Assembly (NCBI GenBank): GCA_038245295.1
Contig: JBBRSP010000014.1
Location: forward strand, 32,001-96,000
Length of the DNA stretch: 64,000 nt
Origin: Candidatus Binatia bacterium
GTDB taxonomy: Bacteria; Desulfobacterota; Binatia; HRBIN30
Direction of reading: 5' to 3'
In this document: positions 5,286 to 30,699 of the stretch, piece after piece
How positions within the stretch are numbered: the stretch's first letter is position 1
How the letters are laid out: the number at the start of each line of letters is the position of its first letter
Made by a program: the position numbers and the translations under genes
Notes under the pieces: model-generated
What the model was told of the DNA's origin: nothing
Databases searched by the model: none
Seen by the model: only the letters and a program-made list of their open reading frames with translations

Positions 5286-6395
5286 TCAGCTCCGCTGCAG
5301 CGCCGGTTCGGCGTGCCGGTTCAAGAGATCACCCACCATCGCTACGGCTCGATCACAGGTGACATCCTCAGAGAGAACAAGCTCGAAACTAGGTACCGCC
5401 GAAGCCAACTCGTCGAGCTGTGTCTCACGCTGCAACATCAGGCCGCTCGGTAGCAGTTGTTCGAGCACCGCGGCGTAAGCGAAATAGCGGCGCAAGTCAT
5501 TGATCAACAGGTCGCCTGAACTGAGGCGATGGCGTGCTTCCCTATCATCGAGTTGGCGCACCATGCTCGGCGCTCCGCGTCGCGGAAAGAGCAACAATGC
5601 CGCGCGACCGCGATCGGCGAGATGTGACGGAGCAACGCGGTAACCGCCACGATGCAAGCCATAGGAATGCGGAATCGCCTCCAGTACCCCGGCCCGCGTA
5701 CCGAGCCAGTCCTGACTGAAGCGATCGAGAAGAATCGGTTCGTGAACCGCCCAGACCTGTGTCGCGTGGTGGAGCACGAAACTGTCCGACAACAGTCGCG
5801 CCCCTTTTTCGGCGCCGAGAGCCACCGTCAGGGTGGACTTGCCGATGCCGCTTGCTCCGGCCAACAGCACCACCTGATCATTCATCAGCGCCGCACCGGC
5901 ATGCAGCGGATGGCGCCCCTGCATGTGTTCGAGCCACCACCAGCACGGGTAGTAGACCAGATAGGCAAGGATCGTCGGGAAGCGGCGGCGGCGCATTACG
6001 TCGCGACGCTGCCACTGGCGCACGCGGCGGATCGTGTCACTCAGACGACTGTTGCCGAGGCGGAAATAGAAGTCGGCTTCGATCTCGAGACGCGCGCCAT
6101 CCCAGGTCAGGCGCAGGAACAGATCGCGCAGGTCGTCGACCCGAAACCAGTGCAGGGTGTTGCCGTAGTGATACAGATCGCGATCGATGCGCAACGCCGC
6201 CGGCGCCACCTTGCGGATCGATTCCGGCGGCTGCCCGTCGTGCCAGCGCAGGCGCGCACAGATCGTTGGGGTCTCCGGTACCTCGGACAACAGGGGCGCG
6301 AGGTGCGACCTGGAATACTCCGTCAGGTCATCGGCATCCGACTCGAAGAGAAACGGAACGCCCGCCAACGTGCCGGTGACCGGCTTACGGCTCAT
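5286..6395 (-). CDS. HprK-related P-loop kinase, uncharacterised
   Basis: LHAGA...LLAGASGIGKSTL (Walker A) ...LLSD. Start reset to ATG 6395 overlapping upstream stop. Confidence 0.6.
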   Translation of the reverse strand: MSRKPVTGTLAGVPFLFESDADDLTEYSRSHLAPLLSEVPETPTICARLRWHDGQPPESIRKVAPAALRIDRDLYHYGNTLHWFRVDDLRDLFLRLTWDGARLEIEADFYFRLGNSRLSDTIRRVRQWQRRDVMRRRRFPTILAYLVYYPCWWWLEHMQGRHPLHAGAALMNDQVVLLAGASGIGKSTLTVALGAEKGARLLSDSFVLHHATQVWAVHEPILLDRFSQDWLGTRAGVLEAIPHSYGLHRGGYRVAPSHLADRGRAALLLFPRRGAPSMVRQLDDREARHRLSSGDLLINDLRRYFAYAAVLEQLLPSGLMLQRETQLDELASAVPSFELVLSEDVTCDRAVAMVGDLLNRHAEPALQRS

Positions 6396-8803
6396 GCCGC
6401 CGCCCCGGCTGACGGACCACCGCGTCCCGTCCAGCGTTGGGCGGCGTGCTGCATGGCGCGTCCGGCGGGCGCCAGACGCGCGTAGGCGCCACGTGCCAAG
6501 CGCGTCACCGGACCGATACTGCGATGCGCATAGGTGTACGGAACCTCGGTTGGGCCAAAGGTGCGCTTGAATCGCGCCACACTCTCGATGCCGGCACCGA
6601 CCATGTCGTACGTGGCAATCCCTTGTGAGCAGGCCCAACGAATGACCTCCCAGTGCAATAGATTGTTGGGACGCGCATCCTGCGTTGCTGAGTCGCTGGC
6701 ACCGTCGAGGTAGTAGATGCCGCGTGAGTCGTACGGGAAGATGCCGCCCGAAATCAGCTTGTCATCGAGATAGGCGAAGAACACTTTGACGGGCCCGCCT
6801 TTGGCGGCCAGTTCACCGATGGCGCGATAATCGTCCTTGCTGAGCCACGGTGGGCGATTGGATTTGGCGAAGACCTGTTGCGCCATCTCCCAATAGCGAT
6901 CGAGATTCGCGAGCAGGTCACCCTCGACGATCGTCACGCCGCTGTTCTGTCCCTTGCGCACGGCGCGCCGGCACGACGAGCTCAGCGAGTCGCGCCACAA
7001 GGCTTCTTCACCCGGGCGCATGTCCAACAGGAACGTCGCTCGCTGCTCGGTTTCGAAGCCGGCTTCCGCCAGCGCCCCCGTCTCCACTTCCTTGGCGAAG
7101 CGAATCTCGATGTAGGAAACCTTCTGGGCGCGCAAATGCCGGACCACCTCGCGCATGACGCTCGGCAAGAGCGCCGGGGCAACCATCGGCCCGAGGTACG
7201 GCGTGCCCGCTTGTGGCGGTGGCGAGGCGGCGATCTTGAACACACCTTTGCGAAACAGGAACAGAGGCAGTAGGCCGGCTGGTCGCTCCCCATCCAAGAT
7301 GCGTAGCAGCTTGAGCTCGGCACGGCGTTGCGTCGCTACCAATTGCAGCCACGCCAGACGATGAAAGACGCTGGCGTCAGGAAACGCCGCGAGCAACGTA
7401 TCCCACTCGCTCTCTTCGCACGGCAGTAGACGGATCACCTGTGGCGCGACGGTCTTGGTGACCGTGGTCGCTTTCGACACCAGGCCGGTGGAACGCAACC
7501 GCTTCTCCGTTGCCCCGCGTACGGCGGCCCAGATGAACTCCACGTCGGATCGCCGCGGAATCAACACTTCGCGAAAACCCATGCCGGAGTCGCGCCGGAA
7601 GGCAATCAGCAACATCACCGCGGCAAGCGTATAGGCCATGCTCGTAGCGATCGCCGCACCAACGATGCCGTAGCGCGGGATCAGTAGGATGTTAAACAAG
7701 ACGTTGCTGACCAGGGCGACCATGCCAGACGAGATGTTGATGGCCTGCTTATTCCGACTCGTGAAATCACGCGACAAGATCGTGAACACGGACATCATGA
7801 CCGCGCCGAGCATGGCGTAGCTGAGGGGCCGCGCCGCGGCGGCAAAATCGGCGCCATACCAGAGCGGTATCAAGAACGGCCCACCAATCGCGGCAACCAT
7901 GCCGCTCGTGGCGGTCAGAAGAATGGTGCCGCGGCTCGCCTGCGCCGTGAGCGCATGCACGTCGGACTTATCCAGCGAGGCCATCTTGGGATAGATGACC
8001 CAGCCAATGGCTTGCGGGATCTCGAGAACAATCTCTGTAAAGTGGAGGGCGAGGCTGTAGAAGCCAGCCTGCGTGGCCCCGAGAAAGTACGACACGATGT
8101 AGACGTCGCTGCGGAACAGCATGTGCATCGTCAGGATCTGCGCGTACGACAACAAACCGAAACTCATCTGACGGCCAAGCAGCGCACGGTCTGGGCGCAG
8201 GCCGAACGGGATCATCTGACGGGTCGTGTAGAGCAAGGACAACACGACGATTGTCGTCGTTGCGGCGTAGATCCAACTGGCATTCCACAGCGTCAGTCCA
8301 ACAGTGAAACGCGCTCCGACAACCATCACCATGACCAGCGCTGCGCCGGCCAAGGTACGCCGATTGTAGAGCGAGAAGTTCCCCTTGGCCTGCAGGACAC
8401 CCCAGAAGAAGTTGTCCACCAGCAGCAGCGGTACGCGCCAGAGGGCCAGCAGAAGGGCCCACCCCGGCACGCCGCCGAGGATCGTACTCAACAAGGCGTC
8501 GCGTAGGAACCAGGTAGCGGCGCAGACGACGAGACCGAGCACCATCCCCAGGAAGAGCGAGTTGGTGGCAACGCCGGAGAGCGAGGCGCCCTCGCGCCGC
8601 ACACAGTACACGTTGGCCGGAGTGATCCCGAGCTTGGTAATCGTCAGGAGTGTCGTCGGCAGCAATGTGACGAGCGCGAACAGACCGCGTTTGTCCGGCC
8701 CGAGGCCGCGCGCCAAGAAAATCGATGTCAACGTGCCCAACAACGCGACGCCGGCGCGCGAGCCCAGTAGGCCGAGAACATCGGAGGTCATGCCACGTTT
8801 CAT
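6392..8803 (-). CDS. Wzx/MOP polysaccharide flippase fused to C-terminal GNAT/FemAB-like domain
   Basis: About 430 aa multi-TM region (LARGLGP..G, LIPRYGIVGAAIAT) followed by a soluble FemAB-like domain (VFHRLAWL, RRAVRKG, PNNLLHWEVIRWA, RFKRTFG). Confidence 0.85.
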   Translation of the reverse strand: MKRGMTSDVLGLLGSRAGVALLGTLTSIFLARGLGPDKRGLFALVTLLPTTLLTITKLGITPANVYCVRREGASLSGVATNSLFLGMVLGLVVCAATWFLRDALLSTILGGVPGWALLLALWRVPLLLVDNFFWGVLQAKGNFSLYNRRTLAGAALVMVMVVGARFTVGLTLWNASWIYAATTTIVVLSLLYTTRQMIPFGLRPDRALLGRQMSFGLLSYAQILTMHMLFRSDVYIVSYFLGATQAGFYSLALHFTEIVLEIPQAIGWVIYPKMASLDKSDVHALTAQASRGTILLTATSGMVAAIGGPFLIPLWYGADFAAAARPLSYAMLGAVMMSVFTILSRDFTSRNKQAINISSGMVALVSNVLFNILLIPRYGIVGAAIATSMAYTLAAVMLLIAFRRDSGMGFREVLIPRRSDVEFIWAAVRGATEKRLRSTGLVSKATTVTKTVAPQVIRLLPCEESEWDTLLAAFPDASVFHRLAWLQLVATQRRAELKLLRILDGERPAGLLPLFLFRKGVFKIAASPPPQAGTPYLGPMVAPALLPSVMREVVRHLRAQKVSYIEIRFAKEVETGALAEAGFETEQRATFLLDMRPGEEALWRDSLSSSCRRAVRKGQNSGVTIVEGDLLANLDRYWEMAQQVFAKSNRPPWLSKDDYRAIGELAAKGGPVKVFFAYLDDKLISGGIFPYDSRGIYYLDGASDSATQDARPNNLLHWEVIRWACSQGIATYDMVGAGIESVARFKRTFGPTEVPYTYAHRSIGPVTRLARGAYARLAPAGRAMQHAAQRWTGRGGPSAGAAA

Positions 8804-10047
8804 GTCGTGGGTCCCTCGGATGCAGTCGTCATCGTCGATTGGCGCATCACCTCCGGCAGCAGCGCCGCGGCCGGAGGCGGCTTGTGGCGCAAGCGACGGA
8901 AGAAACTCAATGTGTCGTGCACCAATGCTAAACTCCAGTCGCCTGGTTGCCGAATCGCGGACACTTTTTCCTTATTGACCAACAGCGTATCGATTAGCCG
9001 CCTCTCGTCGGCGCGCTGATTGAGCTTCACGTGATGTTCGAAGACAAAGAAGCGCGCATCGTTTTGTGGGCTTTCGAGCAACTCCGGCAAGCGCGGATCA
9101 CCGGTCAGATCGTAGTATTGAATGAGGGGCAAATTGACTCCGGAGAATGCGGATAGCTTCACCCACAACCACGAACGCCCATTGATCTCGAGTAGTTTGT
9201 ATTCGTCGTCCCGCGCATCGTACTTGAACTCGACCTGACTAATGCCTTGGAAACCCGCCGCATCGAGGAGGCGCCGCGCCGCGTCGAACACACGCGGCGG
9301 CAGGGTCATCGTCTCGGAGACACTCGCCATGCCGTGGTAGTAGGGATATTGTGTGCGTTTGCGTCCCGAATACGAACGCATGACCTTGCCGTCGCGGCCG
9401 CTGTAGGACCCGATCGTGTAGAGCTGGTCCGGTTCGCCCGGGATGTTCTCGGCCACCTGAAACTCGCGGCCGGCAAACTCTGCGGCGATCTCTGCCAGGG
9501 TGGCGCGCAACTGTTCCGGGGTTGCCAGGATGCGCAAGCGAAACACTTGATCACCGGCGGTCTCGGCACGTGAGGACGGCTTGATGATCAGTGGAAAGCG
9601 AAAGCCGTCGACGTCGGGAGTTGTACCCGCCGCGAACCGAACACAGCGCGGAATTGCCACACCGCTACGCTCGGCCAACTCATACTGCCAGTTCTTGGCA
9701 AAGATCTGCGTGCCGATCTGCGGCGCCGCCGGGACGTGGTAGCGCGCCGACAGGCGGTCGTAATTGAGAATCAGATCTTCCAGATCAGCGTCCGTGCTCG
9801 GGAACAGGATGCCGCGTCCCTCGAAGCGCTGCGCCAGACGAAGCAACGCATCCGTCAGCGTCTCACCGCGGCGGGGGTCGAAAGTCACCCGCTGCTTGGC
9901 AAACTGCGAGAAGCGTCCGTACGTCGGCGGCCATCGACGGTCGACCGTGATCATGTCCACGCCACCCAACTGCAGGGCATGGATGATCCCGATCCCAGCC
10001 GTCTCGGCGTTTACAACAACCGCCGGATTGCGGAGTGGTCGAGACAT
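8800..10047 (-). CDS. ATP-grasp carboxylate-amine ligase (D-aspartate-ligase-like)
   Basis: FPLIIKP, ENIPG, GISQVEFKYD.RD..YKLLEINGRSW, SGVNLP. Confidence 0.85.
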   Translation of the reverse strand: MSRPLRNPAVVVNAETAGIGIIHALQLGGVDMITVDRRWPPTYGRFSQFAKQRVTFDPRRGETLTDALLRLAQRFEGRGILFPSTDADLEDLILNYDRLSARYHVPAAPQIGTQIFAKNWQYELAERSGVAIPRCVRFAAGTTPDVDGFRFPLIIKPSSRAETAGDQVFRLRILATPEQLRATLAEIAAEFAGREFQVAENIPGEPDQLYTIGSYSGRDGKVMRSYSGRKRTQYPYYHGMASVSETMTLPPRVFDAARRLLDAAGFQGISQVEFKYDARDDEYKLLEINGRSWLWVKLSAFSGVNLPLIQYYDLTGDPRLPELLESPQNDARFFVFEHHVKLNQRADERRLIDTLLVNKEKVSAIRQPGDWSLALVHDTLSFFRRLRHKPPPAAALLPEVMRQSTMTTASEGPTT

Positions 10048-10053
10048 TGGCGA

Positions 10054-10809
10054 CTACTTCATCAAAAGCGTATCGGCCCGCAGGCCCTGGCGGATCGTCT
10101 CCAGCGAGATCACTTCGTTGGGCGGGATGTTGCCGAGGTTGACGTTGCAACCGAAGTGCTTGACCATCCAAACCTGCTGCACCTTCTGAGGAGCCTCAAA
10201 GATGAGGCGGCTCGAGTCGATTTGAACCTCGATCTCCTCGATCAGTCCGTGACGAATCTCGCCGCTCTCGCGATACAGGCCCACCGTACCGGATTCGCGG
10301 CCTTCCGTGACGACTTTTGCGGCGCCCGCTTCGAGCTCAGCCTTGATCTGCTTCACCCAGCGGTACGGCGCGACGACAACCGCGCTGTCCTTGCTGCCGA
10401 CCTCGGAAAACACCTTGAAGTCCTTGGCAAGGCGCTCGATGTACCCGAGCTTTTGGGCCTCGTTCATTTCGACGACACCGTCTGAAACCTCTACCAGACG
10501 TAGGCCCTTGTCCTTGAGGAAGGCGATGTACTCGTCGACCTTGCCGCGATGCACCGCCAACTCGAACATACTGCCGCCGCAGCACACTTCGACACCGTGT
10601 TTCTGCAACAGCGCGATCTTGGCGTCGAGATTCCCGACCACAACCGCCGTCGCCCAGCCGAACTTGACGATGTCCACGTACGGCGCGGCCACCTCCATCA
10701 TCTGCTCGATCTCGGCGATGGACATGCCTTTATCGAGCACGTGTGTGAGGCCCTTCTCGCGTGGTCGCAGGGTCCTGGTTGGATCACCGAAGAGGTCCTG
10801 AATACTCAT
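10054..10809 (-). CDS. comA: (2R)-phospho-3-sulfolactate synthase
   Basis: PRxxGLTHVLDKG, KFGWAT, EVSDG, SEVGSK, EGRESG, FEAP, NVNLGNI, LETIRQGLRADT: full ComA motif set. Confidence 0.93.
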   Translation of the reverse strand: MSIQDLFGDPTRTLRPREKGLTHVLDKGMSIAEIEQMMEVAAPYVDIVKFGWATAVVVGNLDAKIALLQKHGVEVCCGGSMFELAVHRGKVDEYIAFLKDKGLRLVEVSDGVVEMNEAQKLGYIERLAKDFKVFSEVGSKDSAVVVAPYRWVKQIKAELEAGAAKVVTEGRESGTVGLYRESGEIRHGLIEEIEVQIDSSRLIFEAPQKVQQVWMVKHFGCNVNLGNIPPNEVISLETIRQGLRADTLLMK

Positions 10810-10813
10810 AGTC

Positions 10814-12322
10814 TCACCATGCCTTGCCGATTCGTTGGGCGATCGCCGCGCGCAGCACTTCTGGGAAGCGCGTCGCCGATGCCTGCCTCTCGATCGCGCC
10901 GGTGTCCCGGCTTACTTGCTTCTGTAATTCGTTGGCCATGCGCCGCACTTCGCGCGGCGCACAACCACCGCGTGTGGCGCGTTGATGGACGATCTGGGCG
11001 GCGTCTAGCTCGCGCACCAGATCGCGCACGCGAGTCTTGAGGGCGCGCCCCGTGCGCTCCTTGAAACACCGGCTGAGTACGTCGGCCTCTGGTTGTTGAA
11101 CTTGTCGTTGCACCAACTCGCGCACTACGGCCCCAACAATCTCGTGCGCCGTGCGCGCATCGACACCCTCGTGCTGCAGCAGTAGGTCGGCGAGCTCAGT
11201 CGCCCAGGTTCCACCCGAGCGCGCCTGCTGCTCCAGGCGTGCGACGTCGAACTGCGCCTGCGCCACGACTTCGCCGAGCAGGTTCAGTATGGCGCGCACG
11301 GTTGCGGTGGCACGCGGCAACAGGTCATAGGCCGTGTTACGGTTGTCGAGCTGCCCCGAGGGCGTCTGATTGGTGGTGATGACGCTCACCAATTGCCCAA
11401 CCAACTCACGGGCTTTGCCACGGATGTGCGACAGCGCGTAGGGATTTTTCTTGTTCGGCATGATCACGCTGGTGCGGCAGTGGCGATCAGCCAGTTCCAC
11501 GAACCCGAATTCCTCGGTACTCCAGATCTGCAATTCCTCGGCGAGCCGGTCAGCGGTGGTGGCAAGCGACACCAGGATCGCCATGGCATTGATCGGCACA
11601 TCCGTCTGCCACATCGCGTCGCGGTTGTGTTCGGTCAGGGAAGAAAACCCGAGCAGTCGGCACAACCGGGCTCGATCCAAGGGCAGCAGCGAACCGTTTG
11701 TGCTGGCGCAACCGGCGGGTGAGGCGTTCAGCCCGGTTATCTCCTGACGCAGGCGCGATAGATCGCGAGCCAACGGATAGGCAAAACCCAGCAGGTAGTG
11801 GCCCAGCGTCGTTGGGTGGGCATGCTGAAGGTACGTGAAATCGGGCATGAGCGAGTCGACGTGACGGCGCGCCACATCGGTGATGGCATCGACGCAGCTC
11901 GAAACGTCATGCGCCAACGTCCGCATCGCGCCGCGCAGGTGGATGAGCCAGGCAATCGTCAGGGCCTCGCGGCGTGCCCGGCCGGCATGTATCCAACCAG
12001 CGGTCGCGCCCAGGCGTGCCTCGAGCGCGGCATCACGGTTGTTGTAGAGGTCACCCCATTTGGCATCGAGGCGAAGGGCCATCAGCCCGCCTTTGTGCAA
12101 GTCCACCAGGGCCCGCAGCAACTGGTGACCGGGCTTCTCCGGGATCACACCCTGCTCGATGAGCATCAGGGCGTGCGCCAGATCGGCGTAGCTCAGTCCG
12201 TCGAACAACACGTCGGCATATTCGAGCTCGGTGCGAAACGTGTCGACCAATGCCGGCGATGGTGGTTCGACGAGTCGCGAGCCGACTCCAAGCTGATGTT
12301 TACGCTGACGTTGAACGGCCAT
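10814..12322 (-). CDS. Argininosuccinate-lyase (aspartase/fumarase) superfamily lyase with altered substrate motifs; XcbC-like candidate
   Basis: Region 1 HAGRARRE (ArgH: HTGRSRND), region 2 MPDFTYLQHAHP (ArgH: MPGYTHLQRAQP), region 3 TSVIMPNKKNP (ArgH: GSSIMPQKKNP). Confidence 0.85.
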   Translation of the reverse strand: MAVQRQRKHQLGVGSRLVEPPSPALVDTFRTELEYADVLFDGLSYADLAHALMLIEQGVIPEKPGHQLLRALVDLHKGGLMALRLDAKWGDLYNNRDAALEARLGATAGWIHAGRARREALTIAWLIHLRGAMRTLAHDVSSCVDAITDVARRHVDSLMPDFTYLQHAHPTTLGHYLLGFAYPLARDLSRLRQEITGLNASPAGCASTNGSLLPLDRARLCRLLGFSSLTEHNRDAMWQTDVPINAMAILVSLATTADRLAEELQIWSTEEFGFVELADRHCRTSVIMPNKKNPYALSHIRGKARELVGQLVSVITTNQTPSGQLDNRNTAYDLLPRATATVRAILNLLGEVVAQAQFDVARLEQQARSGGTWATELADLLLQHEGVDARTAHEIVGAVVRELVQRQVQQPEADVLSRCFKERTGRALKTRVRDLVRELDAAQIVHQRATRGGCAPREVRRMANELQKQVSRDTGAIERQASATRFPEVLRAAIAQRIGKAW

Positions 12323-12331
12323 TTTCGTCTC

Positions 12332-13531
12332 TCAGTGCAGCACAAACTCGGCCGCCGACGCGCCGGCGATACGGCCGTGAACCAACGAATCGGTGATGCC
12401 GTTTCCCATGAGCCGATTGCGACCGTGTAGTCCGCCGGTCATCTCGCCGGCCAGGAACAATCCCGGAATCGCCGAGGCGCAGCGCGGCGTGATCCGAAAT
12501 CCACCAAGGTGATAGTGCAGGAACGGGTAGATCAGGATGTCCTGTCCGAGCCGACCGGTACGCTCGAGGTACTGGTGAACTTTAGGGAAGACTCCGACGA
12601 GTGTCGACTCCGGCACGTCGCCGATCGTTAGCCACACGCCCGGACCGTCGTCGCTCTCCACCATGTCGCCCGAAGCCAGCAGCTCGAACATATGCTGCGT
12701 CAACGCGTAGCGATCTTGACCGGGTTCGCCGACTACGCGGCGATGGCGGTCCAGAATCCGCACCGGATAGTTCACGATGCTTTCCGGCACACACTTCCCG
12801 ATGTCATCGCGCTGCGAACCAACGATCCCAAAGGGTTGATACTGAAAGAATTCGGCGTGTACTGTTTCCAATCCCAACGCCTTCAGCAGGTCGATCATCC
12901 GATGATTGATGTTCTCTGGATTGGTGGTCGGTTGATGGCGGCGTTGTGATTCATGAAATGTCATGCCGCCGGTGCAGACAACGACGCTGCGAGCCTCGAT
13001 CTCGGAATCCTCGCCCTTGGGATCGCGCAAGCGTAGGACAAAGGAATGCTGACGCACGTCGATGGCAACAACTTCACGGTTTGCCATGGGTTCGACACCA
13101 GACTCCTGCATACGCGAACGCAGCACCTTGATGATCGCCGGGCCAATCTGATCCTTGACGGAAACGATGCGCGGCTCACTGATGCCGCCGGCCCGACGGC
13201 GTACAAGGCGACCATCTTGATCGCGGTCGAAGTCGAGCCCCCAACCTTCGAGAAGCGCAACGGTGGGCGCGACATGCGTCACAAAATTCCGCACCAGCTC
13301 GAGGTCGAGATCGATCCGCGCCGAACGCACGATATCGTCCACGAAGCTTTGCAGCGAATGTTCCGCAGGCAACGGCAACTGCAGACCGCCTTGCGCCATG
13401 CGCGAGTTCGACTTCCCAAGCGGGCCGTCGGAAACCACGGCACAATCGGTGCGTTCCACGGCGGCGATCGCCGCCATCATGCCGGCCGCTCCGCTTCCAA
13501 TTACGACAACGTTGCGCACGACACCAACCAA
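12332..13531 (-). CDS. FAD-dependent oxidoreductase, SdhA/FrdA/NadB flavoprotein family, lacking the C-terminal helical domain
   Basis: VVVIGSGAAG, SNSRMAQGG, TGG, PFLHYHLGG, AGEMTGGLHGRNRLMGNG. Only 399 aa; start codon uncertain (TTG). Confidence 0.85.
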   Translation of the reverse strand: MVGVVRNVVVIGSGAAGMMAAIAAVERTDCAVVSDGPLGKSNSRMAQGGLQLPLPAEHSLQSFVDDIVRSARIDLDLELVRNFVTHVAPTVALLEGWGLDFDRDQDGRLVRRRAGGISEPRIVSVKDQIGPAIIKVLRSRMQESGVEPMANREVVAIDVRQHSFVLRLRDPKGEDSEIEARSVVVCTGGMTFHESQRRHQPTTNPENINHRMIDLLKALGLETVHAEFFQYQPFGIVGSQRDDIGKCVPESIVNYPVRILDRHRRVVGEPGQDRYALTQHMFELLASGDMVESDDGPGVWLTIGDVPESTLVGVFPKVHQYLERTGRLGQDILIYPFLHYHLGGFRITPRCASAIPGLFLAGEMTGGLHGRNRLMGNGITDSLVHGRIAGASAAEFVLH

Positions 13532-13544: not shown

Positions 13545-14294
13545 TCAACCTCGTTTTTCGCAGACCAACATCCAGGTATTCACATCCTTCCCTGGAATCG
13601 CCTCGAGTGCGTGAATGAGCAGGCGCGCCAATCCGCCCAACCGGAAGCGCAAGCGGTTGATGCGGCGCTGCAGCGGGAAATGGCGCAGAATGCCGTCCAT
13701 GCGCTGCACCTCGAAGCCGTTCTGAATCATCTCCTGGCGCAACTCTTCGGGAGAATAGAGAACGTCGAAAATCTTGTAGGTATCGACGCCCTGGCGCTCG
13801 CGTTCGGCCTGCGAAACGTCGCGGTTGAGCGCGTCAACCAGCAGTGCTCCGTGCGGCCGCAAGACGCGTTGGATCTCGCGGTACAGACGCACCCGATCCT
13901 CCGCCTGGAAGTGCCGAATGAAACGACAGGTGTAGACGACATCGAACGACGCATCCTGGAACGGTAGGCGGAACGCGTCCGTGCGCAAGAACGACCACAC
14001 ACCGGCTTGCCCGCCCATTCGTTGTTGGGCCGTTTCGAGCATCGGCTGGCTGGCGTCGATGGCGACGCCGAAGGGCACGGCGCGCATCTCGGCGGTGAGG
14101 CGACCGGGGCCACAGGCGATCTCGAGCGCGGTACGGACGCCGCGCGCCGCCATCACCTCGTTGAGGAACGTGATCTGCCGATCATGCAGCAGGCCGTTCA
14201 GCGGCTGAGCGGTGCGTTTGTGCATGTACGCATCCACCACACCGCGGTCTTGGTAGTAGGACTTGAGGTCGTCCGGTCGATCGAGGGGGCTCAT
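13545..14294 (-). CDS. Class I SAM-dependent methyltransferase
   Basis: LEIACGPGR, DAFRLPFQDASFDVV, RVLRPHG. Start reset to ATG 14294 (ATGA overlap). Confidence 0.9.
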   Translation of the reverse strand: MSPLDRPDDLKSYYQDRGVVDAYMHKRTAQPLNGLLHDRQITFLNEVMAARGVRTALEIACGPGRLTAEMRAVPFGVAIDASQPMLETAQQRMGGQAGVWSFLRTDAFRLPFQDASFDVVYTCRFIRHFQAEDRVRLYREIQRVLRPHGALLVDALNRDVSQAERERQGVDTYKIFDVLYSPEELRQEMIQNGFEVQRMDGILRHFPLQRRINRLRFRLGGLARLLIHALEAIPGKDVNTWMLVCEKRG

Positions 14295-15295: not shown

Positions 15296-16366
15296 CTACG
15301 CGGCCGCCAACGATGCCGGACGCATTGCGACGCCCGCTCCGGCCCAGACCTTTTCCAAGAGCGCCACTGCCTCGCGTCCCTCCATGGCCGAGACCGGAGG
15401 CGGCTCGCCATGCGCCAGGGCGCGATAAAGAGCCCGGAAGTGCATCCCCATGCCCGGGTAGAAGCGCTGTGTGCCGGTAACGAAGCCGATGCCGTTCACC
15501 ACGGTCGCGCGCATCAGCTGGCTCGCCTCCTCTAGATTCGGCAGCACTTTGCCGACGAGTTTGGGAGCCTTACGGGTCTGGCGCGTCACCAATGTCATGT
15601 TGTTCAAATTCACTTCGGCGGTGATCTTGGAGCCGAACAATGTGACGCGATTCTGCGGCGGACGGGTGTTGGTTGTAATCGTCAAACTCCCCAAGGCATT
15701 GGCCCCATCCACAACGGCGCGCACCTCTTCGAGACTGCCCTGCGGCGTCTTACGAGCGACAACATGTACGTCGGCGATGCTGCCCACCAGGCCTCGCAGC
15801 AAGTAGATGGGATGTGGCGCCAGATCGTACAAGATGCCGCCCGGCAGAGATGCCTTCCAGTGGCCGGGATCAGGTAGATCCGCTTCCCCGACCGCCGCAC
15901 CGGCGAAGACGTCGACACCCACCAGATCTCCGAGCTTGCCACTCTCCAACAATCCGCGGGCCGCCTGCATCACGGGGTCGAACCAGCGATTGTGATCGAC
16001 CGTCAGGAAGCGGTTGGCGCTCTTGGCGGCGGCAATCATCGCGTCGGCCTCGGCCGCCGTGAGAGACATGGGCTTCTCGACCACAACGTGCAGACCGGCA
16101 GCCAACAATTCCATCGCGAGTTGGGCATGGCTGGCAGGCGGGGTCAGGAGGTGGACGACATCGGGCTGGCCGGCAGCCAGCAACTCCTCGATGTCGGCGT
16201 AACTCGGAACCTGCCAGCGGCTCGTGAAGCGCTCGCGACTTTCACGACTTAGGTCGCAGGCCCCGATAAATTCCACCTCCGGCACCTGACGCAGGTAACC
16301 AGCGTGTACATCAGCGATCCGCCCGCACCCGACAAGGGCGACGCGGAAACGCGCAGAAGCAGTCAT
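15296..16366 (-). CDS. Gfo/Idh/MocA family oxidoreductase (probable NDP-sugar dehydrogenase)
   Basis: VGCGRIA, HVVVEKP, GGILYDLAPH. Confidence 0.9.
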   Translation of the reverse strand: MTASARFRVALVGCGRIADVHAGYLRQVPEVEFIGACDLSRESRERFTSRWQVPSYADIEELLAAGQPDVVHLLTPPASHAQLAMELLAAGLHVVVEKPMSLTAAEADAMIAAAKSANRFLTVDHNRWFDPVMQAARGLLESGKLGDLVGVDVFAGAAVGEADLPDPGHWKASLPGGILYDLAPHPIYLLRGLVGSIADVHVVARKTPQGSLEEVRAVVDGANALGSLTITTNTRPPQNRVTLFGSKITAEVNLNNMTLVTRQTRKAPKLVGKVLPNLEEASQLMRATVVNGIGFVTGTQRFYPGMGMHFRALYRALAHGEPPPVSAMEGREAVALLEKVWAGAGVAMRPASLAAA

Positions 16367-18897: not shown

Positions 18898-20094
18898 TCA
18901 GCGCCGATTCGCACCAAGTATCCTCCGTAGGGCGTCGGCAACATGGGCTACGTCATCATCGGTCATGAGCGTAAAGAACGGCAACGATAGAATCGTCTCG
19001 GCGGCGGCGGACGCCACCGGTAGATCTCCCAGTTCGAGCCCGAAGGCATCGCGATAGAACGAGTGCATATGCAGCGGGATGAAGTGCACCTGGCTGCCAA
19101 TGCCGACGGCCTTGAGCTCTTCGATCACGGCATCTCGATGGATGGTGAGACGCTCCGGCCGCATGCGGATTACGTAAAGGTGCCAGGCGTGCTCGACGTC
19201 CGGCCGGGTTACCGGCAACTCGATCGTATCGACATCCGCCAGATACCGGTTGTAGAGCGCGGCGATCTCCTGGCGGCGGCGGTGAAGATCGGGCAGGCGG
19301 CGCAGCTGGACGATGCCCATCGCCGCGTTGATGTCGGTCATGTTGTACTTGAAGCCCGGATAGGAGACGTCGTACCGCCAGGACCCCTCGCTGCTGTAGC
19401 GGCGCCAAGCATCTCGGCTCATGCCGTGCAAACGACGTGTTCGCATGCGGTCGGCCCATTCCTGGTTCTCGGTGGTCAACATGCCACCCTCGCCCGTGCA
19501 CAGGTTCTTGGTGGCGTAGAAGCTGAACGCCGTAATGTCGCCGATGCTGCCGATATCGCGGCCGCGGTATTTTGCCGGCAGCGAATGTGCGGCATCTTCG
19601 ATCACGACCAGACTCTTGGCCTTGGCAATTTCGAGGATGGGCGCCAGGTCGACTGGATGCCCCGTATAGTGAACCGGCACAATCGCACGCGTCCGCGGCG
19701 TGATCTTTCGTTCGATATCGGCGGGGTCGATGTTGAGCGTGTCTGGCTGAACATCGGCCAAGACTGGCTTGGCGCCGGCATGAATGATCGTCGCACCCGT
19801 CGCCGTAAACGTCATTGTTGTGGTGATCACCTCGTCGCCGGCATCCAGATCCAGGGCGTCGAGCGCCAGATGCAACGCGGAGGTACAGGAGTTGACCGCG
19901 ATGGCGTTGCTGGCGCCAAAGCGAGCCGCAAATTGTTGCTCGAACTCGTGGGTTCGGGGTCCCACTGTGATCCAGCCGGAGCGCATCGTTTCGACAACGG
20001 CAGCAATCTCTTCTTCCCCGAGATCCGGTTTGTAGAAGGGTATTTGCCGCTGCACGGCCGGGGGTGGGGCGACCACCGCGCTGGGTTTGCTCAC
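18898..20094 (-). CDS. DegT/DnrJ/EryC1/StrS PLP-dependent sugar aminotransferase
   Basis: NSCTSALH, EDAAH, FSFYATKNL (PLP Lys), GEGGM, GFKYNMTD, LSLP. Confidence 0.95.
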   Translation of the reverse strand: MSKPSAVVAPPPAVQRQIPFYKPDLGEEEIAAVVETMRSGWITVGPRTHEFEQQFAARFGASNAIAVNSCTSALHLALDALDLDAGDEVITTTMTFTATGATIIHAGAKPVLADVQPDTLNIDPADIERKITPRTRAIVPVHYTGHPVDLAPILEIAKAKSLVVIEDAAHSLPAKYRGRDIGSIGDITAFSFYATKNLCTGEGGMLTTENQEWADRMRTRRLHGMSRDAWRRYSSEGSWRYDVSYPGFKYNMTDINAAMGIVQLRRLPDLHRRRQEIAALYNRYLADVDTIELPVTRPDVEHAWHLYVIRMRPERLTIHRDAVIEELKAVGIGSQVHFIPLHMHSFYRDAFGLELGDLPVASAAAETILSLPFFTLMTDDDVAHVADALRRILGANRR

Positions 20095-20137: not shown

Positions 20138-20935
20138 TCATCGTTGTGCGCCTACCGCCGCACGCGGCACGTCGGCACCGGCAACCACCTCCGTCGCTTG
20201 ACCGCGCACGAACACGCCCAGCATATCGGCCTTCAGGACATCCAGGCCCAGGCGATCAATCAGGCGCTCGAAGAGTAGAGAGAGCGCGTACAAGGGGCGC
20301 ACAAAACCGAACGAGTGTGCCAGGGCGAGGCGTTCGAGCCGATCTTCACGGAAGTTGGAGCTCGCCGCCAGGCGTCGCAGCGCCGCGGCGGAATTGGCGC
20401 GGTAGAAGGTCGGGAACAGCTCCTCTTCAAAATCCTGCCATTCGCCGCGCGCGAAGTAATACGAGACCTTCTTGAACAGTAGGTGGAAGCGGTAGGGGGT
20501 CAACGACGCGACGATCATCGCATAGTTGAAGCGATTGGGAGTGAAGGCAATGAAACGCCCACCCGGGCGGCTGATGCGTGCGACTTCACGAAACACAGCG
20601 TCCGGATCCTCCAGGTGTTCAAACACCATCGCTGCCGTCACCAGGTTGAAGGTGCCGTCGCGGAACGGCAACGCCGCCGCGTCACAGACCACCAGATTGC
20701 GGATGCTCGTATGCTTGGACAAGTACGGGTCGCGATCACAACCAACCGCCAGGGTGGCGCGCCGCGGTAGATCCTGGTTGAGGTCGTCATCGGGACAGAT
20801 CTTCTTGCCGCAGCCGATATCGAGCCAGCGGGTCTGGGTTCCGACAGTGGCGTCGAGGAGCCCCTGGTAGATCGCCTTCGGAGACTTGTAGTCCGGATAG
20901 AAGCGCCGAATCATTGCGGCGTTGCGGCCCAACAT
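20138..20935 (-). CDS. Class I SAM-dependent methyltransferase
   Basis: WLDIGCG, DAAALPFRDGTFNLV, VFEHL, RPGG. Start set at ATG 20935 (TGATG overlap). Confidence 0.88.
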   Translation of the reverse strand: MLGRNAAMIRRFYPDYKSPKAIYQGLLDATVGTQTRWLDIGCGKKICPDDDLNQDLPRRATLAVGCDRDPYLSKHTSIRNLVVCDAAALPFRDGTFNLVTAAMVFEHLEDPDAVFREVARISRPGGRFIAFTPNRFNYAMIVASLTPYRFHLLFKKVSYYFARGEWQDFEEELFPTFYRANSAAALRRLAASSNFREDRLERLALAHSFGFVRPLYALSLLFERLIDRLGLDVLKADMLGVFVRGQATEVVAGADVPRAAVGAQR

Positions 20936-22284
20936 CAGGCGCGTCCTCCCACCGCCGCAAGACGCTCGGAGGCGACAGTCCACTCGGGCACGAGCATTTG
21001 AATTAGGCGTTGTACGTTGGCGTCGCCGTCGAACTCGGCGAGGATGCGTCGCCGGGCGGCACGCCCAAGGCGTTGTCGTTCCTCTCGACTTTGCGCCAGC
21101 CGCCGTACCGCGTCGACGATCGGCTCGACGGCATTCGGCTCCACCAGAAAGCCGCACTGGCTGTCGTCCACCAACTCTTCCGCGCCGGGAATACGCGAGG
21201 CAATCACCGGCAACCCCATTGCCATGGCTTCGACGATGACATTGGCGATCACGTCGCGGCGACGTGATCGGCCGGCCAACTCGCTTGCCAGGACAAACGC
21301 GTCACTCATCGCCAACATCTCGACCAATTCTTTGTGAGGCCGTCCGCCGAGCAGGCGAATGTGGTCCTGTAGGCCGAGCTCGCCGATCTGCCGTTCGAGG
21401 TTAACGCGTTCGACACCTTCGCCGACAATCCAACAGCTGACGTCGACACCTTCGCGGCGCAGTCGGGCACATGCTTCGACCAACAGATGCATGCCCTTGT
21501 AGCGTTCGAGTTGCCCGCAGGAGCCGATGACAAGACGATCTGACAATTTGCCCTCTTGGCTCACCGGGGTGAAGCGCGAGATATCAACGCCGTGATAGTT
21601 GACGTGGATCTTCGCCTGCAGCGGGGCGGCAACCAGTTTTGACAAGAAACGCTGATTCGTTTTGGCACATGTGACCACGAACTCAGCCGCGGCAATCTTC
21701 GCCGGCAACATGCGCTGGGTCATGTAGATATCGTAGGCGTGGGCGCTGATGCTGAACGGTAGGCCAGAAAGCCGATTCACCAAGAAGGCGACCGTCGCCG
21801 GGTATGTCGCCCAGTGCACGTGCAGATGGGTAATCCCGTCCTTCTGCAAACGCTCGTTGAGGTGGATCGCCGTCGGGATGAGCGCCAACGATTTGATGAG
21901 ATACGGAAAGGGATGTCCATTGAGCCAGCCACGCAAGCGATTGTAGAGCGTGGCGCGGCTACGTGCGGCGGTCGACTCTTGCTGCGGCGCCTCGGCGCCG
22001 GTACGCCACGCACTGACGACGGCGGCGATAAGTCCGAAAAACCTCCGCGGCGAGCGAACGAGCAAACCGGCGGTTGCCGCCAATGCCTCAGCCGACGCCA
22101 TCGCCGGCAGGTAGGCGACTGTCTTGGCGATAGCGGCGCCCTCGGGTTGTTGGCGCTCGGTACCGGGCCACATCGAGTAGATCAGCGGCTGGACACCGTG
22201 GCGCTTGAGTCCCAGGACCTCCCAGAGCACGAAGGTCTGGTGAAACACCGGAAAGGCTGGGAACAAGTAGCCGAGCTTCGTCAC
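20935..22284 (-). CDS. Glycosyltransferase family 4 (WcaL-like)
   Basis: FP..HQTFV..E, HLHVHW, SAHAYDIY, YHGVD, YKG, RDVIANVIVEAMAMGLPV. Confidence 0.9.
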   Translation of the reverse strand: MTKLGYLFPAFPVFHQTFVLWEVLGLKRHGVQPLIYSMWPGTERQQPEGAAIAKTVAYLPAMASAEALAATAGLLVRSPRRFFGLIAAVVSAWRTGAEAPQQESTAARSRATLYNRLRGWLNGHPFPYLIKSLALIPTAIHLNERLQKDGITHLHVHWATYPATVAFLVNRLSGLPFSISAHAYDIYMTQRMLPAKIAAAEFVVTCAKTNQRFLSKLVAAPLQAKIHVNYHGVDISRFTPVSQEGKLSDRLVIGSCGQLERYKGMHLLVEACARLRREGVDVSCWIVGEGVERVNLERQIGELGLQDHIRLLGGRPHKELVEMLAMSDAFVLASELAGRSRRRDVIANVIVEAMAMGLPVIASRIPGAEELVDDSQCGFLVEPNAVEPIVDAVRRLAQSREERQRLGRAARRRILAEFDGDANVQRLIQMLVPEWTVASERLAAVGGRA

Positions 22285-22286: not shown

Positions 22287-23162
22287 TCAGAATCCACCCT
22301 CTTCGGCAAAACGCAACAAGCCCGCGGCCTTGCGCCAGAACGTGTCATCGCGATGCGCGGTCCAGCGACGCACCATGACGCGGCTCATCGGCGTGCGCAG
22401 GAAAGCCGCCAGCAACGGATGGAAGACGACGCGCTGGCGCAGCGGACGAGCCTCGAACCCCATGCCGAACTTGAACTGATCCAGCGGTCCAACCGGCTCG
22501 AGCGATTCCAACCCGAAGGTGATCTTTTCGACCTGGCGTCGGACGAGCATCTCCTCGGTCACGGAGTAGATCAACGCGTTGTTCGGATAGGCACCGAGGT
22601 CATCACTGCACGAGCGCGCCAGCATGAACTCGACGCCATCCTCGAAGCTGACGCTCACCAGGAAGGCGGCAACACGCCCGTCGACCCGCGCTGCCCAGCC
22701 TTCAAATCCCGGCGCTGCGTCGGCGGCACGCCAGAAGCGATCCCATCGATCCTCGCCCATCCCACCGTCGCGGCCCTGGCGCGCCAACGTGTCGGTATGG
22801 GCTTGACGCCCTTCCACAGCCAGATCGGAGAACGAGATCGGTCCGACTTCGCAACGACGCAGCCCACGTCGCACCTTACTGCGGAGGTTGGCGCTCAGAC
22901 CGGCAAGGCCATAGTCGCGATTGTCACAGACGATCTGATAGCTCAGCTTGCCGCTCGCCGAGAGCGGTGCCGCATAACGCGCACCGAGGCATTGCCGTAG
23001 GACTTGTCGAACTTCGACGTCGCTCGGTGCGTACTCGCGGTGCGACGGAGCACTCAGGAAGAAGAACCGGTTCGCGTTGTACCACTGCGCCGACGGCGTT
23101 TGGACAATCCGGTGCCCCAAAGCGCGCAGAAACTTCGCGTATGCATCGGCACTCATCGACAT
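22287..23162 (-). CDS. GNAT/FemAB-like acyltransferase
   Basis: LSANLRSKVRRGLRR, YPNNALIY, LDQFKFGMGF, typical of the FemAB-type GNAT fold. GAGG RBS before ATG 23162. Confidence 0.65.
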   Translation of the reverse strand: MSMSADAYAKFLRALGHRIVQTPSAQWYNANRFFFLSAPSHREYAPSDVEVRQVLRQCLGARYAAPLSASGKLSYQIVCDNRDYGLAGLSANLRSKVRRGLRRCEVGPISFSDLAVEGRQAHTDTLARQGRDGGMGEDRWDRFWRAADAAPGFEGWAARVDGRVAAFLVSVSFEDGVEFMLARSCSDDLGAYPNNALIYSVTEEMLVRRQVEKITFGLESLEPVGPLDQFKFGMGFEARPLRQRVVFHPLLAAFLRTPMSRVMVRRWTAHRDDTFWRKAAGLLRFAEEGGF

Positions 23163-23169
23163 CGATACC

Positions 23170-24606
23170 TCAGAATGCCTCAGAGTAGGGCCTTGGTTGG
23201 TGCATGATGATGCGGCGCATAACCATCGATAGACCAACCAACCAGAAGAGAATCACGAGCTGCCAGAGATCAGCAAACGCCGAGAAGAAGACCATGACCA
23301 AGAAGCTCGTCTTCGCGGCTTTGATGACCCACTGAAGGTCGTGCGCCTCCGTATCCGGATCCGCCGCCGCGAACTCACACCAACGAAGGTTACGCCATGT
23401 ACTCCATAGCAGTGCCAGGAAGGCGAACAGGCAGAAGATCCCACCCTCGACCATGGCCAGCAGATACGAGCTGTGTGGCGCGGTCGTGGAACGCGCCGGA
23501 TCCTTCAGGTAACGCGCCACCTCCCAGTTTCCCATTCCGACGCCAAGAAGCGGGTTGTCCAAGAAGATATCGAAGGCGACCCCCCAGGTTCGGGCGCGAC
23601 GTTCGAGAGAACCGGACCCCTCACCCGATTGCCCGGCTTCTGTTCCGGGGAGGTTGGTGATGCGGTCTAGACTACGCTGTGGAACAAACGCGACCGCCAA
23701 CAATACGAGCATCGCTCCGGCAATGGCCATGCTCAGCAGGCTGGAGATGCTCAATCTTTCGTCGATGATGATCACGATCATGCAGACGGCCATACCCAAC
23801 ATCCCGGAACGCGAGGCAGTCATCATTACCGCCAGAGCCAGAACAACAATCGTCGGAATGATCAGATAGCGCAGCCCCGGGGTCTGCAGGGACCGCATCA
23901 GGTACCACAAGCCGGCGATCGCCATGATCGCGAACATGGCCAGACGATTCGGATTGTACGCCGAGGCGATGAGTGCCGCCTCAGTGGTGGCGCGATAGCC
24001 GTACAAACCGCCACCGGACAGAACGCCTTGGACGCCGCTCAGCGCGCTGGCCACCATGAAGGCGACGGCGAGCAGATAAATCATCCGAACGTGTTCGGCG
24101 GTGCGGATGAAGTTGATGAAGAACACGGTAAACAAAACCCGGTTGATGAACGTTCGCAGGTTCGACGCGGCATGCTCTTGAACGCCGAGAAGGTCGCGTA
24201 AAGAGTCGTCGGGGCCATTCAGGCGGTCAGACAACAGGTACAGCAGGATGATCACGATGAACAGGCGAATCTCCGGGGAACGGATGAACCACCAATCCTC
24301 TTCCCGATAAAGCTTGTAGACCAGGAGGATGAGGAAAAGGCCGCCCATCGCGTTGTTGATGGTCAGAAGTCCCGAGCCTTGCAACGACGCGGGGTACGTC
24401 ATCAAGAACGTCGACAGGAAGAAGGCAATGCCGTACTCGGGACGCGCCACCACGACGGCAACAAACAGCATGCCGATCAGCGGCAGCAGCGCGAGGGTGC
24501 CGAGAACAACCGTACTGGTCGCCACCAAAGCGGCGAATACGACGAACGCGACTACCGGAAATAGACCTCGTGACCTAGTGTTTTGCGGCGAACCAATGGC
24601 CTGCAC
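23170..24606 (-). CDS. Wzy-type polymerase / O-antigen ligase family membrane protein
   Basis: Multi-TM; NPN, TASRSG, R...W...F.DNPLLGVG.GN, PHSSYL..MVEGG. Confidence 0.85.
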   Translation of the reverse strand: MQAIGSPQNTRSRGLFPVVAFVVFAALVATSTVVLGTLALLPLIGMLFVAVVVARPEYGIAFFLSTFLMTYPASLQGSGLLTINNAMGGLFLILLVYKLYREEDWWFIRSPEIRLFIVIILLYLLSDRLNGPDDSLRDLLGVQEHAASNLRTFINRVLFTVFFINFIRTAEHVRMIYLLAVAFMVASALSGVQGVLSGGGLYGYRATTEAALIASAYNPNRLAMFAIMAIAGLWYLMRSLQTPGLRYLIIPTIVVLALAVMMTASRSGMLGMAVCMIVIIIDERLSISSLLSMAIAGAMLVLLAVAFVPQRSLDRITNLPGTEAGQSGEGSGSLERRARTWGVAFDIFLDNPLLGVGMGNWEVARYLKDPARSTTAPHSSYLLAMVEGGIFCLFAFLALLWSTWRNLRWCEFAAADPDTEAHDLQWVIKAAKTSFLVMVFFSAFADLWQLVILFWLVGLSMVMRRIIMHQPRPYSEAF

Positions 24607-27709: not shown

Positions 27710-29010
27710 CCCACCCTGTCCACGGACTTGGCGCTTATACGATCTCTCGAAAAAGCTATCAATCCCTCGATATCAAAAGTTTTCTGCACCAACGCACCAT
27801 TGTTTTGCAAATCCGCAGAACAGATCGACGCATAGACGCGTTCCACGAGAGCCGCCGACTCTGCCCAATCCGGAAGCGCCGCGGCGGTGGCGCGGGCTGC
27901 GTCAGCAAGTTGCTGGCGGTATTCCGGATCACGCGCCAGCGCTGCCAACAGCGCTGCCAAATGACGACTATTTCCGTTGCGGAACACCAATCCGTTTTCC
28001 CCATGGCGAATGCTCTTCGCCGCGCCTTCGGCCACCACGACGGCGCGCCCCGCGGCAAGATAGTTGAGGATCTTGATCGGATAGCCTGACCAGGAACGGC
28101 GTGGACAGAGGAGGACGTCGGCGGCCGCTAGATGTCCCAAAACTTCCCGGAAGCTGCGCACGACAACAACCCGGGCACCGCGCCCGCACAGCAGTCGCAG
28201 CAACGCGGGGTCAGAATGCCGTTGCCACTCGGCGTCATGGGTCACGACGAGCAACTCCGCCGACGGAATGGCGAGGCGCAACTCTCCGAAGGCGGTCCAT
28301 AAGACGTCGAGATCCTGGTAGCCGTCGAGATTGCCCGCATAGACGACGCGGAAACGCGCCTCGCTCGTCTCGCTCGTGGCATCAGGCAACCCCTCAGGTG
28401 GCACGAATGGCTCCGGTCCACCCGGTGGAATGCACACAATCCGACTCGCCGCCCCCCCGCAGCGCACCAGATACTCCGCAACTTCGGTGGCCAACGCGAT
28501 GCTGCGATCCGCACGGCGCGGCACGTGCCGATCAACAAAGCCCCCAAGTTTGGCCATCAACGCGCGCCAGCGCGGCTGAAAGTACCACGGCAACTCATCG
28601 GCGAGGACGTTATGCGCGTGGTAAACGATCGGCACGCCGGTCAAGCGCCGTACGACCAGGGCGACGAGCATTCCCTCGTAGTTGTGGGCGTGCAAAACCT
28701 CGATGCGCTGACGACGCACGACCCGGAACAGCTCGCGCATCAAGGCGATGTCCAGAATCGCCTTACGACGCCAGGACAATCGCTTTGGTGGGCGGTCGAA
28801 TAGCGGCAGTCGACTGCGATGTACGACCAGACCTCGCAGGGGTACGAGGTTTTCACCGAATGGGTAGGTCACCACGTGCACTTCGTGCCCGCGATCGGCC
28901 AACGCCGTCGCGGTCTCACGAATCAGGACCTGCGAGCCACGTGCGGAGGGGAACGGACACGCCGCCACCATGGCGATGCGCAGGACTCGCCGCGGGCTCG
29001 TCTGACTCAC
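27706..29010 (-). CDS. Glycosyltransferase family 4
   Basis: ACPFP..RGS, HAHNYEG, YAGNLDGYQ, PIKILNYLAAG. Start set at GTG 29010 (GTGA overlap). Confidence 0.85.
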   Translation of the reverse strand: MSQTSPRRVLRIAMVAACPFPSARGSQVLIRETATALADRGHEVHVVTYPFGENLVPLRGLVVHRSRLPLFDRPPKRLSWRRKAILDIALMRELFRVVRRQRIEVLHAHNYEGMLVALVVRRLTGVPIVYHAHNVLADELPWYFQPRWRALMAKLGGFVDRHVPRRADRSIALATEVAEYLVRCGGAASRIVCIPPGGPEPFVPPEGLPDATSETSEARFRVVYAGNLDGYQDLDVLWTAFGELRLAIPSAELLVVTHDAEWQRHSDPALLRLLCGRGARVVVVRSFREVLGHLAAADVLLCPRRSWSGYPIKILNYLAAGRAVVVAEGAAKSIRHGENGLVFRNGNSRHLAALLAALARDPEYRQQLADAARATAAALPDWAESAALVERVYASICSADLQNNGALVQKTFDIEGLIAFSRDRISAKSVDRVG

Positions 29011-30662: not shown

Positions 30663-30699
30663 ACGCGACTCCTGCGTTGGTCCGGCTTGGCGAACCCGT

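Follow-up and report, generated by a model that had tools for sequence, protein, structure and literature searches.

A four-gene cassette resembling the first half of coenzyme M synthesis in a Candidatus Binatia polysaccharide operon, and its possible role in sulfonating a surface glycan

A four-gene cassette whose most likely role is the sulfonation of a surface glycan lies within a polysaccharide operon of a Candidatus Binatia bacterium, in a 64,000-nucleotide stretch of assembly GCA_038245295.1 (contig JBBRSP010000014.1, positions 32,001 to 96,000) that we call the window. All on the minus strand and in order of reading, the genes encode a flavoprotein (12332-13531; 399 amino acids, FAD_binding_2, PF00890), an XcbC-type lyase (10814-12322; 502 amino acids, Lyase_1 and ASL_C2), ComA (10054-10809; 251 amino acids, PF02679, 286 bits, E 2.6e-85), and an ATP-grasp ligase (8800-10047; 415 amino acids, a weak Pfam match to ATPgrasp_Ter, E 2.9e-6). 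The initial annotation of this DNA had described four contiguous, co-directional genes inside a Wzy-dependent operon, and the coordinates, the Pfam matches, and the intergenic gaps of 9, 4, and 6 nt all agree with that description. The cassette is real, recurring, and coupled; it works like the first half of bacterial coenzyme M (CoM) synthesis, a pathway to which it nevertheless does not belong.

Tentatively, we propose that the cassette converts phosphoenolpyruvate (PEP) and sulfite to phosphosulfolactate, then to sulfoacrylate and 3-sulfopropionate, and finally joins this acid by an amide bond to a glycan amine; the complete route is possible rather than probable, and its steps differ in assurance. 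ComA would add sulfite to PEP, a reaction shown for its orthologs and very probably catalyzed here, and it is nearly as probable that the lyase then eliminates phosphate to yield sulfoacrylate, as has been shown for Xanthobacter XcbC. Judging from its residues, the flavoprotein, with non-covalently bound flavin adenine dinucleotide, would on balance reduce the double bond to give 3-sulfopropionate, the sulfonate analogue of succinate. Family chemistry and context then make it rather likely that the ATP-grasp enzyme forms an acyl phosphate and links it to the amine. The initial interpretation, which ran along the same lines, is overall partly supported by the sequences; its product (3-sulfopropionate), its acceptor (taken to be an amino sugar, as opposed to an amino acid that a FemAB-like domain would add), and the placing of the sulfonate on the polymer are parts that we, too, infer.

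All four genes occur together at 15 other loci, in at least five gene orders, and surface-glycan genes stand beside 14 of these (a flippase at 12, GT2 or ABC-2 genes at two, and none at L044; loci are numbered with L and genomes with G). The gene set is therefore not a product of chance, and the recurring synteny for which the initial annotation advised a search does exist. Six of the 15 loci are close kin in family f3 that share one gene order, and these are thus not independent. In the GTDB scan, 9/13 loci hold all four genes, and eight of the nine have a window-like wzx beside the cassette, its flippase part being 45-62% identical; the ninth, in a gammaproteobacterial metagenome-assembled genome, has a different flippase plus a GNAT gene. 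The locus nearest to the window by sequence is L009, where the flavoprotein is split into two pieces; it is whole in L101, whose lyase and ligase are identical to the L009 proteins. Within the class-wide sample, ComA was found in 59/301 genomes, and 57 stretches were fetched from 55 of them, leaving out G000, the unpublished G177, and two weak partial hits. This sample adds the four-gene loci L053, which is intact, L050, with an internally deleted flavoprotein, and L044, in which three genes are broken; metagenomes add L104, L105, and L110, which have different ATP-grasp subfamilies and, in two cases, a lyase cut by the contig end. G177 (the same as G305) counts in the 59/301 and in the family f9 tallies and supplies L012 and L013 of the 13 GTDB loci; it is not among the nine four-gene loci, it is probably one of the 119 flavoprotein homologs considered below, and no conclusion rests on it. 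No cultured carrier of the cassette was found, and plasmid searches gave just xcb clusters and distant matches.

Two of the incomplete loci deserve description in their own right. At L050 (7819-13377, G221), the flavoprotein lacks approximately residues 54-351, the ATP-grasp gene is on the opposite strand, and acyl carrier protein and pyridoxal phosphate-dependent decarboxylase genes, followed further on by an AMP-binding gene, have been inserted; this looks like one tailoring module replacing another. At L044 (7617-11650, G023), the flavoprotein, lyase, and ligase are broken where three congeners have HAD phosphatase and dehydrogenase genes, which may reflect either decay or an assembly error. 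The flavoprotein is thus broken in both G221 and G023, and the lyase also in G023, whereas comA is intact in each.

ComA matches PDB entries 1u83 and 1qwg over its full length, is 35.5% identical to XcbB of Xanthobacter autotrophicus Py2, and is single-copy in the host assembly (96.6% complete). Sequence comparison makes it highly probable that the lyase, a protein of the aspartase/fumarase superfamily, is of the XcbC type, predicted to perform the phosphate elimination by which XcbC turns phosphosulfolactate into sulfoacrylic acid (PMC9457059). Its top plasmid match is X. autotrophicus Py2 Xaut_4873 (XcbC), which adjoins a phosphosulfolactate synthase gene; identity is 43% to this protein, 30% to the host ArgH, and 26% to XcbD, and 113 lyase positions side with XcbC against ArgH, whereas 46 go the other way. 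Residue 164 is Tyr, as in XcbC, at the position of a host ArgH His that we take to be catalytic. In a quick tree of 47 rows with a single ArgH outgroup on a long branch, the lyase groups with XcbC proteins, apart from the host ArgH and XcbD, with a support of 98 in the SH-like approximate likelihood ratio test (SH-aLRT). An ArgH identity was rejected because of the higher score on the XcbC model, the grouping with XcbC, and Tyr164; the initial annotation had taken this ASL-superfamily lyase to act as XcbC does, and a check for grouping with ArgH did not refute that assignment. XcbC-type lyases were present in 2/401 genomes of the phylum of G304, both in xcb clusters, and in 1/401 genomes of the phylum of G301.

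That the window carries a CoM cluster, or housekeeping argH and nadB genes inserted by chance, is highly improbable. The lyase does score 279.4 bits on the argH model against a cut-off of 279.5, and nadB is the best NCBIfam match of the flavoprotein, though at 150 bits it is far under the cut-off of 452.75; the assembly, however, holds an ArgH-like gene, NadB (over its cut-off), and SdhA, all located apart from the cassette. The initial annotation had recognized no ComB or other CoM genes in the window, and this now extends to the whole assembly, in which XcbA had zero matches, ComB was not found, and the best model score for XcbD was 80 against a cut-off of 600 (ComC and ComDE were not searched); lacking xcbA, comB, and an xcbD ortholog, the cassette is thus not CoM synthesis. 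Moreover, the true xcb clusters L010, L078, L181, L182, and L192 show no ATP-grasp or flavoprotein gene of the cassette kind. Complete clusters of this type were seen in L078, which belongs to the window's own class and in which XcbD and XcbE are fused, and in L010 and L192, from two genomes of the phylum of G304.

The flavoprotein is a stand-alone member of the Frd/Sdh family with no C-terminal domain and no Fe-S partner gene, and its AlphaFold2 model (pLDDT 95) has E. coli FrdA as its best fold match (TMq 0.91). It was compared with 119 homologs (120 listed of 276, minus the query). Glu250, Arg274, His339, and Arg373 are invariant in 119/119, leaving motif I (His/Arg/Arg) and the proton-channel Glu intact, and the second channel Arg of Frd/Sdh is Val253 in the window protein. 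Motif II, the His/Thr pair that binds the C1 carboxylate in Frd/Sdh, is Gln232/Pro249; Gln is found at position 232 in 109/119 homologs and Pro at position 249 in 119/119, whereas in NadB and SdhA of the host these two positions hold His and Thr or Ser, respectively. Position 114 is Ala in the window protein and in 114/119 homologs, and is Glu in the host NadB, where it presumably serves in amino-acid binding. An L-aspartate oxidase (NadB) identity is accordingly rejected on Ala114 and on the low nadB score. The initial annotation had labelled this flavoprotein Frd/NadB-like and read it as a reductase, and the sequence tests support a reductase-type protein with an altered specificity motif.

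Unsaturated-acid reductases are described as keeping motifs I and III whereas motif II varies (bioRxiv 2022.01.20.477176). The flavoprotein keeps motif I and the catalytic Glu and Arg, has an altered motif II, and lacks the NadB Glu, a combination that fits a sulfoacrylate reductase. The altered motif II suits a substrate that, like sulfoacrylate, bears a carboxylate at one end and another group at the other. The likeness to fumarate, urocanate, methacrylate, and acrylate reductases thus covers the fold, motif I, the proton-donor Arg/Glu, and a specificity change in motif II (bioRxiv 2022.01.20.477176); the window protein differs in its Gln/Pro motif II, in having no attached heme, FMN, or Fe-S module, and in its biosynthetic rather than respiratory context. 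Among the best 80 of 498 metagenome flavoprotein loci, whose relatedness deprives a p-value of weight, comA or the lyase was alongside in 8/12 Gln-type, 0/63 His-type, and 2/5 unscored loci; the His-type relatives L115 and L135 adjoin Fe-S subunits in Hdr/hydrogenase or tricarboxylic acid cycle clusters. From these residues and neighborhoods, sulfoacrylate reduction is the probable function, and this much-studied family has not been known to have such an activity. Two further candidates were discarded. Met375 and Asn42, considered as sulfonate-specific residues, are common to L115 and L135 and so mark descent only; and a fused electron transfer flavoprotein gene, seen beside GT4-wzx in six fetched family f3 stretches and considered as electron donor, was not used, the same gene also flanking L052, which shows no flavoprotein, and lying on another contig in G000.

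The ATP-grasp protein has fold matches to PylC, biotin carboxylase, and L-amino acid ligase; no close relative was found in the PDB, nor any characterized close relative, and an Atlas search confirmed just the carboxylate-amine ligase family. Some close homologs carry D-aspartate ligase as an automatic name. The D-aspartate ligase Aslfm joins D-Asp to peptidoglycan Lys, and the likeness of the window enzyme to Aslfm-like and PylC-like amide ligases consists in the fold and in these automatic names. Distant homologs lie beside flippase, deacetylase, GT4, or GNAT genes in 3/4 plasmid regions. Taken together, it is likely that this is a carboxylate-amine ligase, predicted to attach a sulfonate acid to a glycan amine.

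An ATP-grasp gene is near comA in 46/57 fetched stretches; among the 11 that lack a ligase are one true xcb cluster as well as contig ends and distant copies of comA. The middle genes vary: a lyase and flavoprotein in 9/57 stretches, a HAD phosphatase and D-2-hydroxyacid dehydrogenase in 9/57 (eight with a ligase of the same clade, whereas L098 ends before any ligase), ComB in 9/57, and a lyase alone, in the form ligase, lyase, and comA, in 21/57. Family f9 commonly has the lyase-alone form, and at E 1e-60 the flavoprotein profile matched nothing in 20 of its genomes. The constant logic is to add sulfite, remove phosphate, and activate the acid, and the window belongs to a modular family made up of comA, a phosphate-removing enzyme, an optional redox enzyme, and an acid-activating ligase. 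Association with glycan genes is strong in the four-gene form, but it is weak in genus g2 and in most loci that have the lyase alone. We advance as a possibility, short of a probability, that the family is a de novo C-sulfonate route to surface polysaccharides bearing N-(3-sulfopropionyl) sugars, built from the CoM steps XcbB and XcbC, a new sulfoacrylate reductase descended from fumarate reductase, and a dedicated ATP-grasp ligase, in which reductase, HAD plus dehydrogenase, ComB, and lyase-alone modules are swappable; if so, such swaps would diversify the group among 3-sulfopropionyl, sulfolactoyl, and sulfoacryloyl.

Some details of these modules are recorded for completeness. In L045, L046, L048, L049, L052, L055, L056, L089, and L098, the HAD gene, the dehydrogenase gene, and comA vary in their relative orientations between genomes. 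In L087 (9632-13663) and L088 (6386-10423), comA, comB, and the ATP-grasp gene are followed by a gene of the enolase superfamily resembling galactonate dehydratase, with a GNAT gene upstream. A radical SAM gene of the PA0069 family in L067 (134-1948), upstream of a family f9 lyase-alone cassette, contains a LAGLIDADG insert that is intein-like.

The same modularity is what favors the most serious alternative, namely, that the glycan is sulfonated with a different group (sulfoacryloyl, sulfolactoyl, sulfopyruvoyl, or cysteate), the flavoprotein oxidizing, hydrating, or disposing of an intermediate; cysteate would possibly be the amine partner, joined to a uronic acid. The same ligase clade accompanies HAD and dehydrogenase genes in eight of the 57 stretches, one and the same site in genus g2 holds either these or the lyase-flavoprotein module, 21 lyase loci have no flavoprotein, and nine stretches use ComB. 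Nevertheless, this alternative is rather unlikely: cysteate, which the initial annotation had offered as a second product, is weakened by Ala114 in place of the NadB glutamate and by the lack of any XcbD-type adding enzyme in the assembly, and the nearest examined His-type relatives of the flavoprotein, L115 and L135, lie in the Fe-S and TCA settings given above. Moreover, a single, separate HAD-type clade was not rejected by the approximately unbiased (AU) test (p-AU 0.255), so that ligase specificity may differ between modules. For the same reason, the two middle modules are not taken to be intermixed on the ligase tree, and that the ligases belong to the same clade is all that is claimed.

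Several observations weigh against the proposed route to 3-sulfopropionate on a glycan. The lyase scores 501.7 bits on the NCBIfam XcbC model NF052535, below the cut-off of 575, as does the L010 lyase from a true xcb cluster at just 505.6. His232 is kept in 10/119 flavoprotein homologs, including in L011 next to an XcbC-type lyase, whereas the Gln-type loci L107-L109 (marine) and L111 show neither comA nor lyase, and there is no electron-donor gene within the cassette. A single ligase clade (support 100) serves both the lyase-flavoprotein and the HAD-dehydrogenase loci; the latter cannot give sulfopropionate, and L055 carries both modules with one ligase. Most lyase-alone stretches are without clear glycan genes, no flippase or glycosyltransferase match was seen within ~10 kb in L044, L045, L048, and L049 of genus g2, and the stretches fetched from family f3, 11-20 kb in length, contain no DegT gene.

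The acceptor amine could be that of an amino sugar made by DegT or of an amino acid placed by a FemAB-like domain. The operon encodes a DegT-family sugar aminotransferase (18898-20094, minus strand; Pfam), which, with a Gfo/Idh/MocA oxidoreductase (15296-16366), is our candidate source of the amine. The wzx flippase (6392-8803, minus strand; Polysacc_synt) is the neighbor found most constantly with the cassette, and its start overlaps the ATP-grasp stop, as the initial annotation had noted, the overlap being 4 nt. It proved to be fused to a C-terminal FemAB-like GNAT domain (Acetyltransf_6/FemAB in Pfam) that the annotation had overlooked; TIGR03019 matches it at residues 466-759 with a score below the cut-off. 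The fusion is also present in L009 and L101, and in L008 there are two separate adjacent genes. A second, Acetyltransf_6-like GNAT protein (22287-23237, minus strand; weak Pfam match, E 5e-4) may be an alternative source of an amino-acyl acceptor. De-N-acetylation would be a third source of the amine; deacetylases are present in L077, L079, and L110, and none was recognized in the window. The unit acylated would be either the lipid-linked repeat unit exported by Wzx or a nucleotide-sugar precursor.

A somewhat smaller chance is given to the acid being as proposed while the acceptor is a short lipid-linked glycan, a glycolipid, a protein glycan, or a free small molecule. Family f3 loci show just GT4 and wzx beside the cassette, L011 and L103-L105 have GT2 with GtrA, EamA, PMT_2, or ABC-2 genes, L106 and L113 have an AMP-binding ligase, and B. 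subtilis accumulates spore sulfolactate to 5% of dry weight (PMC517825). Against these stand the overlap of ligase and wzx inside a full Wzx/Wzy operon, an arrangement kept in L009 and L101, and the independent presence of wzx and wzy in L110. The Chitinophagales locus L011 (5803-14177) itself comprises PAPS reductase, ATP-grasp, His-type flavoprotein, XcbC-type lyase, GT2, DegT, and GtrA genes, with comA on another contig, and resembles an Arn-type lipid-linked amino-sugar pathway.

Sulfite can be supplied by the host because ATP sulfurylase, adenosine 5'-phosphosulfate (APS) kinase, and a gene of the 3'-phosphoadenosine 5'-phosphosulfate (PAPS) reductase family are on other contigs of the assembly, and its source is probably APS/PAPS reduction. 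The contention that the glycan is sulfonated without PAPS consequently holds for the transfer step only; a PAPS-reductase gene is present at two related loci, L079 and L011. These last genes also speak against a catabolic direction, in which the cassette would break a C3 sulfonate down to sulfite and PEP; this reading is improbable. Phosphosulfolactate uptake and conversion to PEP have been proposed in SAR11 for comA pairs flanking a transporter (PMC11796062), and G002 and G237 have multi-copy comA among solute-binding protein genes; however, those copies are distant (27-30% identity), and the cassette is without a transporter and coupled to an ATP-dependent ligase and a flippase. The arrays in G002 and G237 (L090, L091, and L100), with eight and six distant ComA matches per genome set among solute-binding protein arrays, MmgE/PrpD, and PGA_cap genes, possibly represent sulfonate uptake or a catabolic use of ComA.

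Among known systems, the X. autotrophicus Py2 CoM pathway (XcbB-XcbE and XcbA) shares with the window its ComA/XcbB and XcbC homologs (PMC9457059) and the predicted intermediates phosphosulfolactate and sulfoacrylate; the window differs in having no XcbD or XcbA, in its Frd-like flavoprotein and ATP-grasp ligase, and in its polysaccharide operon. The C. difficile type B flagellin glycan likewise has a C-sulfonate amide-joined to an amino sugar, Fuc3N, but there taurine, carried by an Ala-Gly peptide, provides the sulfonate, and no ComA-type synthesis is named in the accessible part of the source (PMC5207245). B. subtilis YitD/YitC (ComA/ComB) exemplify ComA outside CoM synthesis, but use a phosphatase route, with no lyase, reductase, or ligase and no flippase link named in the part of that paper available (PMC517825). 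In literature searches of partial coverage, with subscription journals mostly missing, no report was found of such a cassette or of a sulfopropionyl or sulfolactoyl glycan, no paper joining phosphosulfolactate with ATP-grasp, and, in titles and abstracts among the matches listed, no sulfoacrylate reductase.

Where bacterial glycans are known to carry anionic sulfur, it is mostly in the form of sulfate esters made by PAPS-dependent sulfotransferases. If the proposed route is correct, its product, an amide of a C-sulfonate, would withstand both sulfatases and acid. An anionic coat proof against sulfatases would then be common throughout one uncultured bacterial class and would occur in other phyla as well, and soils and sediments would have a biosynthetic source of organosulfonates that has been overlooked. 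The route would, in addition, account for comA and xcbC homologs in bacteria without alkene metabolism, where these genes can be mistaken for argH, nadB, or CoM synthesis.

The whole Wzx/Wzy operon extends over 1085-33173 on the minus strand, and Pfam matches identify the wzx, wzy, chain-length/export, and initiating transferase genes of such a locus. Co-directional with the cassette, whose GC content of 61-62% is the same as that of its flanks, are wza, wzz/wzc, a wzy-like gene, wzx, three GT4 genes, an initiating transferase, DegT, and nusG, and the operon further contains sulfatase- and phosphodiesterase-fold genes, short-chain dehydrogenases/reductases (SDRs), methyltransferases, a carbamoyltransferase, and an SGNH gene. 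One GT4 glycosyltransferase (20935-22284, minus strand) has orthologs (41-44% identity) that adjoin wzx and the cassette in several relatives. Directly downstream of wzx is an HprK-related kinase-like gene (5286-6395) with no Pfam match that is kept in L009, L050, and L101. A scan for promoters and terminators gave counts at chance level. The operon gene order is the same in L101, save for one methyltransferase that is not shown there and is present in L009. For the methyltransferase gene upstream of the flavoprotein (13545-14294), the probable start is at 14294, where it overlaps the SDR stop, and not at 14408. Paired sulfatase-fold and phosphodiesterase-fold genes were seen twice, at the operon head in the window (29007-32640) and beyond the left end of the operon in L186 (3255-6022).

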